DNA from: Eledone cirrhosa
Lineage: Eukaryota
Assembly (NCBI GenBank): GCA_964016885.1
Contig: OZ024749.1
Coordinates: 37,014,001-37,078,000, forward strand
Length of the DNA stretch: 64,000 bases
Reading direction: 5' to 3'
Position numbers and translations under genes: made by a program. Below are positions 19,060 through 63,258 of this stretch, in pieces. Below the pieces are notes generated by a model, which worked only from the letters and a program-made list of their open reading frames with translations, was not told where the DNA came from and did no database searches. Each line of letters starts with the position of its first letter. Positions within the stretch are counted from its first letter, which is position 1.

Positions 19060-19250
19060 TCTATAGAAGGAGCTTCTACAGGACTAGTACTGTTTCATTC
19101 AGATGAAATCTTCAGAAGCTTCCTGAAGATTTCATCTGAATGAAACTGTACTAGTCCTGTAGAAGCTCCTTCTATACAATAAATATATTTTACTCTACCA
19201 TGTATTGAGTACCTTACTTACTGTGGTTATCCCCGACTCAACCCGGGACC
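19051..19250. mobile_element. PLE-like fold-back, family B
   Basis: Arms ~19051-19115 / 19122-19188 plus tail to 19250; paralogues at 52784-52958 and 60497-60666. Confidence 0.8.
19117..19167 (+). ncRNA. type I hammerhead ribozyme
   Basis: AGCTTC-CTGAAGA-T TTC ATCT GAA T-GAAAC-TG TACTAGTC CT-GTA^GAAGCT; 6-bp stem I; predicted cleavage after 19161. Confidence 0.8.
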
Positions 19251-20089: not shown

Positions 20090-20091
<2 letters not shown>

Positions 20092-20205
20092 CAAAGGAAT
20101 TGTGGTAAGGAACCAGATGGACCATAACGCACCAGAGTACTCAATACTGAGTCCAGAAATAGCCGTCGAAACGGCTTGAGCTCTGCCGTCGGGGTGATAC
20201 TCTTT

Positions 20206-20210
<5 letters not shown>
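20090..20210. mobile_element. family A PLE-like terminus, truncated and inverted
   Basis: Tail segment to 20148 joined to the inverted segment GTCCAGAAATAGCCGTCGAAACGGCTTGAGCTCTGCCGTCGGGG...TTCCTAT. Confidence 0.75.
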
Positions 20211-39186: not shown

Positions 39187-39465
39187 AACGAAGGAAATGT
39201 GGTAAGGAACCAGGTGGACCATAACGCACCAAAGTACTCAATACTTGGGGTAGTAGAGTGGGTAATAGGAACCAGTAAGACCCCAAAGAAAAATTATTTG
39301 GACGGCTGAGCTCAAGCCGTTTCGACGGCTAATTCTGGACTAAATGAAAATTTATCCTGGTATTTAAATAGCCGATCTTCTCAAGGGGTAATTCCATTTA
39401 TGGTCAAAGTGATTGTCAAAAGTCAGTAGTAATTCTGTGATTGCAAACGGGGTCTTACTGGTTCC

Positions 39466-39468
<3 letters not shown>
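39187..39468. mobile_element. family A PLE-like terminus, longest copy
   Basis: Same tail as the 7917 copy; inverted segment 39449-39468 is the reverse complement of 39265-39284. Confidence 0.8.
39280..39389 (-). ncRNA. type I hammerhead, U3-A8 variant, 54-nt stem II domain, interrupted at the cleavage site
   Basis: Minus strand ACCCC-TTGAGAA-GA(T)CGGCTA...TAGCCGTC-GAAAC-GGCT TGAGCTC AGCC-GTC^[16-nt insert]GGGGT. Confidence 0.75.
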
Positions 39469-62451: not shown

Positions 62452-62911
<460 letters not shown>

Positions 62912-62915
62912 ATAT

Positions 62916-62966
62916 AACCCGTGTTAAGAGTGAAAGCACCGATTCTTTGCTTAAACTTTAATCTCT

Positions 62967-62997
<31 letters not shown>

Positions 62998-63027
62998 GCG
63001 TATAGACAGACAGATATGCCTCCATAG

Positions 63028-63063
<36 letters not shown>

Positions 63064-63090
63064 GTATGGAGGCATATCTGTCTGTCTATA

Positions 63091-63162
<72 letters not shown>

Positions 63163-63258
63163 AGATTAAAGTTTAAGCAAAGAATCAGTGCTTTCACTCT
63201 TAACACGGGTTCTTCTGAAACTAAAAAAGTCAATCTGTGGACGCAGAAGTAAATATTT
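62916..63258. repeat. ~295-bp palindrome centred on (AT)n with a tail shared with 42235-42312
   Basis: 62916-63035 is the reverse complement of 63056-63211 apart from microsatellite length. Confidence 0.85.

Follow-up and report, generated by a model that had tools for sequence, protein, structure and literature searches.

Hammerhead ribozymes of Penelope-like elements (PLEs) were described by Cervera and de la Pena (2014, PMC4209133), who state that in vivo evidence for their cleavage is lacking. In their account of the Hydra clade of PLEs, Craig et al. (2021, PMC8557442) call the function of the hammerhead unclear, and cleavage scars are absent from the available text of that account. In addition, an Anolis PLE proved in vitro to dispense with hammerhead activity and gave no RNA reads ending at its site (Frangieh et al. 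2024, PMC11167929), which counts against cleavage in vivo. As far as their available text goes, all three papers leave open whether PLE hammerheads cut in vivo.

The locus described here lies in the window, a 64,000-nt stretch of the 3.0-Gb genome of Eledone cirrhosa (contig OZ024749.1, positions 37,014,001 to 37,078,000), and belongs to a repeat family, termed family A, which on its motifs rather than on a tree is a PLE with Hydra-clade features. Long copies of family A continue into an ORF of ~720 aa with RT motifs followed by C-terminal GIY-YIG-like endonuclease motifs, as read by eye. The motifs DKT, RWR, CNCPDRSIC, CNLC and CKH match what the available text of PMC8557442 gives for the Hydra clade, namely a C-terminal endonuclease after the RT, DKT, a CxCX5C linker, and CxxC and CxH around conserved E and N, except that RWR replaces RWK. 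The two also have in common the (TA)n targets, the inverted truncated copy, the tail on one end and the pLTR hammerhead, and family A shows the tandem or inverted pLTR structure as well. Searches with the family A ORF gave no match in Pfam and none in the PDB. Beside one family A insertion, two ORF fragments are found (L136:264-1442 on the plus strand and 6723-7805 on the minus strand), which are presumably two other Penelope-like ORFs.

The window copy has two truncated arms in inverted orientation, set in (TA)n, and one of them has an 80-nt tail. The long arm, an inverted 5'-truncated insertion (39187..39447), has the minus strand as its RNA sense. Its tail extension (39187..39267), absent from the short arm, runs into the ORF in tandem copies, an anatomy also found in the available text of PMC8557442 and PMC11167929. 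The window holds three other inverted insertions of family A: one with an intact site in both arms (7917..8140), one of an older subfamily in which the short arm reads through the site (20090..20208), and one with an intact long arm and stem III deleted from the short arm (62717..62909). Adjoining a family A copy, long inverted repeats of flanking DNA surround TA tracts at 62963-63210.

On the minus strand of an intact copy, the minimum-energy structure of the pLTR end is a type I hammerhead; the folding energy alone is not unusual (z 0.24). The predicted ribozyme is composed of a 5-bp stem I plus an extension, the core UUGAGAA, a long stem II, GAAA, a 6-bp stem III and GUC^, and thus has the GAAA, the NUH triplet, the stems I-III and the open stem I of the type, with 98.9% of cells paired. 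In the window copy it occupies 39268..39395 of the minus strand, including the extended stem I, and is split by a filler; the core lies at 39378..39384, the GAAA and stem III with its palindromic loop at 39302..39323, and the GUC triplet at 39301..39303, with the predicted cut 3' of 39301. The core of family A reads (U/C)UGA(G/U)AA and departs from the canonical CUGANGA. Inspected by eye among the 100 core matches listed (of 4,833), A8 is fixed and position 7 varies, with ~78 copies having U3-A8 and ~20 having C3.A8. This covariant U3-A8 core is the variant that PMC4209133 reports for PLEs, and the hammerheads in its available text share with family A the type I fold, the long stem II, the 5-bp stem I and the palindromic loop III. 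They differ in stem III, which has 6 bp in family A, so that the family A hammerhead may work as a monomer.

The Rfam hammerhead model gave no match at the gathering score, nor with E relaxed to 10, and no compensatory stem changes were seen among 12 near-identical copies of family A. By eye, the subfamilies of another repeat family, D, differ on both sides of stem I. The U3-A8 core recurs in the unrelated families B, C and F (L286, L276 and L326, respectively), and in family C a C replaces A13. Five more hammerhead-like sites in other repeat families of the window were found with a relaxed descriptor, at 19161 (+), 38408 (-), 48767 (-), 53499 (+) and 60502 (-). Both the element and the ribozyme type are of already known kinds.

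Hammerhead cleavage leaves a 5'-OH end, and the 3' strand of stem I (39280..39284, minus strand) would form the first bases of the predicted 5'-OH product. The initial annotation claimed that a 16-nt insertion and an inversion breakpoint both fall exactly at the predicted cleavage site. The insertion does: the A/U-rich filler at 39285-39300 is missing from the copies at 7917-8062 and 62710-62857, and the gap is unable to slide either way. On the minus strand it sits between GUC (39303-39301) and GGGGU (39284-39280), that is, exactly at the predicted scissile bond, and it has no clear template in the element or its flanks (p 0.05-0.09). The breakpoint is also at the site, as the 20 nt of the plus strand at 39449-39468 repeat 39265-39284 perfectly in inverted orientation, but here “exactly” holds only within 1 nt. 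Because the lone C at the arm junction (39448, plus strand) also matches C17, the short arm breaks either exactly at the bond with one untemplated base added, or one base upstream. This short arm (39449..39468, plus strand) appears to stop at the cleavage site and to have its priming point in (TA)n, at the pLTR end.

Throughout the genome, a pattern allowing a gain of 4-30 nt anywhere over 18 bonds found 99 matches, all of which were classified by eye. Fourteen of them are non-duplicative A/T-rich fillers, and every one lies at the scissile bond (nominal p ~3e-18). All 14 resume at C17 without loss, though the pattern left that free. The other 85 gains, judged by eye, are tandem or hairpin duplications or expansions of TA or C runs, one of which has ~8 extra bases elsewhere. 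In a control window of 22 bonds in the tail, no filler was seen by eye among the 100 matches listed (of 169). The filler event is rare, with 14 filler arms versus 28,717 arms that cross the bond unchanged. Other searches gave three more fillers, for a total of 17, and the old copy L130 resumes with two mismatches; loci retrieved with an insert-bearing query were used for the pairing baseline only and kept out of the filler counts, as the insert in the query biases the search. No public contig spans the window filler, nor do the contigs exclude it, which is uninformative for a high-copy repeat; nevertheless, 17 loci spread over 7 contigs each have a different filler at this one bond, with coupled partner arms, which makes the chance of an assembly or sequencing artefact negligible.

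Breakpoints are not uniformly distributed along the element either. By eye, 29 of ~94 distinct arms stop at the bond (among the 100 matches listed of 778, minus repeats and two ambiguous rows), whereas the three positions before it have 7, 5 and 7, and other positions 1-7. This peak has a p of 1e-15 against a uniform distribution and of 2e-7 against the three preceding positions. Non-duplicative insertions and arm ends are thus both enriched at the predicted phosphodiester, as the initial annotation expected of a cleavage footprint. Among the matches listed, 17 of 100 short arms (of 343) and 12 of 100 long arms (of 1,128) end at the bond by eye; scripted counts over the first 30 loci of the short-arm, long-arm and distinct-arm searches (6/26, 4/29 and 9/28, respectively) agree with the counts by eye. 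Arms that run off at the bond have between 0 and 8 added bases, in most cases 0-3. Short-arm ends have a second peak at the palindromic loop. Loop III is a second breakpoint hotspot, with perfect palindromes centred on the self-complementary loop in ~11 of the 100 matches listed (L097, L110, L111, L115 and L118).

Could such a peak arise on intact RNA, with the RT pausing at the three-way junction or slipping on the G run and with repair adding the filler? Gains at this spot are most often one-base slips of the C run (the majority of the 100 matches listed, of 281), and stem III begins one base past the bond, as pausing or slipping would have it. However, this explanation fails on the resumption at C17, on the coupling of the two arms, and on the U6 fusions at GUH^ in six families without a common G run, both of which are described below; we therefore regard it as very unlikely.

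Three of the 17 filler loci are single-armed and 14 are two-armed. The partner arm stops somewhere from -11 to +1 relative to the bond in 13 of these 14, and the fourteenth, L125, carries the same 5-base filler in both arms. By contrast, among the 23 baseline pairs in which one arm crosses the bond, no partner stops at or before +1 (Fisher p 1e-8, computed on 12 of the 13, prior to inclusion of the last partner). The baseline comprises the 23 pairs that were left after removal of the duplication copies contaminating a set of 55; it takes in partners within 1.5 kb, is blind to short arms ending before -7, and covers 12 of the 14 filler partners. Since the partner arm of the filler loci ends at or before the bond, both arms were probably copied from one and the same cut RNA. 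Consistent with this, two internal RT start sites are reported in vitro in the available text of PMC11167929.

The coupling also bears on an earlier suggestion that a re-ligated circular RNA served as the template. If, ahead of reverse transcription, the cut RNA had received a tail and been joined again covalently, or been made into a circle, the filler would lie inside a sealed template and the partner arm should cross the bond as well; in 13 of the 14 two-arm filler loci, the one in the window included, it does not, and a re-ligated or circular template is hence not the rule for the filler copies. Moreover, a tailed 3'-OH end is no substrate of RtcB according to the available text of PMC6789731. 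In favor of re-ligation, RtcB does circularise retrozyme RNAs (PMC7229834, available text), and the junctions are identical in both arms of L125, L238, L239/L258 and L286/L287, though a rearranged source copy, or conversion between the arms at a later time, can produce such identity too. Two loci connect the far end of the 3' product with its own start: the arm of L244 passes from the bond to ~210 bases downstream in its own element RNA, across an 8-base filler, and that of L238 to ~940 bases downstream, identically in both arms. A foreign element as the joined partner was rejected here, as the joined sequence is the element's own ORF region. Within the 3' product, these head-to-tail copies represent either circles or jumps. 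Taken together, re-ligation is an unlikely origin of the fillers, and what persists of the suggestion is that a ligation agrees with the two-arm U6 chimeras and with L238 and L244.

The fillers themselves add up to 264 nt with a composition, in the RNA sense, of A170 U61 G25 C8, including one run of 28 A. An origin as copies of the element or flank finds no support in 15 of the 17, which have no template there at p<0.05; L126 (p 0.02) and L127 (p 0.01) have a weak possible template. The initial annotation proposed that the RT reached the cleaved end, added or captured extra bases and jumped templates. A jump across the cut end fits well, but the bases rather resemble a tail of the upstream RNA fragment, given the 64% of A in the RNA sense, the identity of both arms in L125 and the few bases added at run-off ends. 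The contrast with the run-off ends is weakened in that these may be trimmed during joining. A-rich mixed tails have been found on human rRNA cleavage fragments (PMC1474067, available text). Three of the 17 fillers, that of the window among them, are U-rich instead of A-rich, which counts against an A-rich tail.

Those three are A-rich in the cDNA sense and would agree with an alternative that keeps the cleavage and the jump and has the RT add the filler to the cDNA while running off the cut end. When the RT of R2 runs off a 5' end made by a ribozyme, it does add untemplated bases (PMC3774820, available text). Over all 17 loci, however, the fillers have 64% T in the cDNA sense. The untemplated additions of RTs are usually purine-rich, which speaks against this origin of T-rich fillers, as do the identical five bases in both arms of L125 and the run-off ends without long fillers. 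Addition by the RT thus appears doubtful, though it is the strongest competitor in our estimation, and we lean towards the tail-and-jump account as a whole, in which the RT would have jumped across RNA 3' tails and thereby left them as fillers.

Additional evidence comes from the 3' end of U6 snRNA. A search for it gave 99 matches, all listed, of which 30 lie in a gene array and the other 69 were aligned by script. Thirteen of these 69 join hammerhead-bearing repeats, twice family A and 11 times one of five other families. The six families have different stems and no common G run, and family A alone is identified as a PLE. Nine of the 13 junctions are exact at GUH^ by script, and two more (L271 and L301) are exact by eye against the subfamilies of family D, which makes 11 of 13; the remaining two (L343 and L299) are one base off or mutated. 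Along the length of family A, U6 is joined nowhere except at the predicted cut, and in L239 both arms run from the bond into the U6 3' end. Five T are present in 12 of the 13 fusion loci, and the Rfam U6 model scores L268, L287 and L278 above the gathering score and L239 below it. A strict hammerhead descriptor, which parses families A, B and C, recognized 36 of 202 junction contexts, most of the others being truncated arms. The relaxed descriptor for families D, F and G, which was written after inspecting them, parses 10/35, 1/2 and 4/16 contexts, respectively, and random positions parse as such a site in 14 of 60,000 draws.

Of the 4 two-arm loci in the hammerhead families, 2 continue into U6 in both arms, versus 1 of 14 for the fillers, which suggests that U6 may have been ligated to the cut RNA before reverse transcription. 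RtcB is able to ligate U6 with its cyclic phosphate (U6>p) to 5'-OH RNA, according to the available text of PMC6789731 and a review (PMC13247085). Should U6 be fused by a template jump instead, a 5' end at that very bond is still needed. Such an end might come from a transcription start or a protein nuclease rather than from the ribozyme, since the pLTRs of PLEs contain promoters (PMC11167929, available text). The C3.A8 subfamily, about a fifth of the copies, has fillers and arm ends at the site despite its mismatched core, which fits this origin and counts against cleavage in vivo. Yet the fillers require an upstream RNA that ends precisely at C17, and the junction follows a hammerhead triplet in six unrelated families, which makes a start site or nuclease highly improbable. 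The earlier proposal of an in vivo self-cleavage footprint crossed by an RT jump is accordingly supported from four sides, the enrichment of fillers, the enrichment of arm ends, the coupling of partner arms and the U6 fusions in six families. From this indirect, genomic footprint, we consider it very probable that the family A hammerhead cleaves itself in vivo.

The U6 search brought up several other arrangements. The tandem array (G000:C19:31778863-31840359), with its 30 U6 3' ends at a spacing of ~1.8 kb, is probably a U6 gene cluster. In another short repeat, a spot close to the 3' end has ~14 U6 ends fused to it or a few bases away, the junctions varying by 1-5 bases (L263, L264, L279, L280, L283, L310, L314, L317, L322, L327, L329, L334, L336 and L341). 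In L272 and L277, U6 3' ends occur as inverted pairs, in the layout of a two-arm PLE insertion. A further repeat family, E, failed to parse as a hammerhead but has U6 attached at one identical point in two loci, L278 (G000:C3:194458583, both arms) and L298 (G000:C11:30880543), with intact copies in L019 and L215; the junction is a candidate for an unrecognised cleavage site.

Starting from the enrichment, the arm coupling and the U6 fusions, we infer the chemistry, the tailing, the jumping and the part of RtcB, and propose the following course of events. Most copies would stem from uncut or seamlessly rejoined RNA, while some template RNAs would cut themselves at GUC^, the pieces being kept together by stem I and protein. 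Two reverse transcriptions would prime on one RNA, at the tail end and at the pLTR end, and give rise to the two arms. On reaching the new 5' end, the RT would mostly run off, leaving an arm that stops at the bond. Sometimes it may jump to a nearby RNA 3' end, namely that of the upstream piece, healed and A-rich-tailed by host decay enzymes and thereby recorded as the filler; alternatively, a jump to the far end of its own piece may yield the head-to-tail copies. The 5'-OH end may also be joined to U6 snRNA, most simply via RtcB. In the window copy, one RT would have crossed a 16-nt tail by a jump, whereas the other stopped.

As a wider and more tentative proposal, for which we would claim somewhat less than an even chance, PLE hammerheads may cut within the transposition complex, with host tailing enzymes and RtcB acting on the products and one RNA templating both arms; U6 retrocopies would then be fossil tags of 5'-OH ends, family E would carry an unrecognised self-cleaving motif, and the head-to-tail copies would be integrated circular intermediates. 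If so, each insertion records the state of one molecule, and DNA sequence alone would suffice to locate active self-cleaving RNAs in any genome, by way of U6 retrocopies. Apart from this proposal, the footprint provides position-exact genomic evidence for in vivo cutting by PLE hammerheads, in the very RNAs that were copied. It is also evidence that a single RNA underlies both arms of the typical inverted insertion, adds ends made by ribozymes to the range of U6 chimeras, and suggests an inexpensive way of finding active self-cleaving RNAs with DNA only. No report of the cleavage footprint, the arm coupling or U6 fusions at ribozyme cuts was found in searches of the open-access literature.

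Compared to the systems described so far, as given in the available text of each source, family A shares some features with each and differs in others. The animal non-LTR retrozymes (PMC7229834; bioRxiv 10.64898/2026.07.22.740005), which have been proposed as PLE derivatives (bioRxiv 10.64898/2026.07.22.740005), resemble it in the type I hammerhead, the link to PLEs and a possible circular RNA; they are non-autonomous, non-coding short tandem repeats, whereas family A encodes its own RT-endonuclease. In PAc Poseidon in vitro (Frangieh et al. 2024, PMC11167929), as here, two internal RT start sites give ends with and without the tail, and the main template is uncut RNA. That system shows no RNA ends at the cut site, whereas family A has copies from putatively cut templates, with coupled arms. 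The 5' junctions of R2, which has an HDV-like ribozyme (Eickbush et al. 2013, PMC3774820), likewise record a ribozyme cut in the genome and contain untemplated bases. The cut of R2 sets the element's 5' end, whereas that of family A is internal and near the priming sites, so that the RT can return into upstream sequence. Similar to the U6/LINE-1 chimeras formed via RtcB (Moldovan et al. 2019, PMC6789731), the U6 fusions reported here join a U6 3' end with about five U to a retroelement RNA that was retrotransposed. However, the L1 partner is variably truncated, whereas the partner in the present genome is fixed at the predicted ribozyme cut and comes from several PLE-like families.
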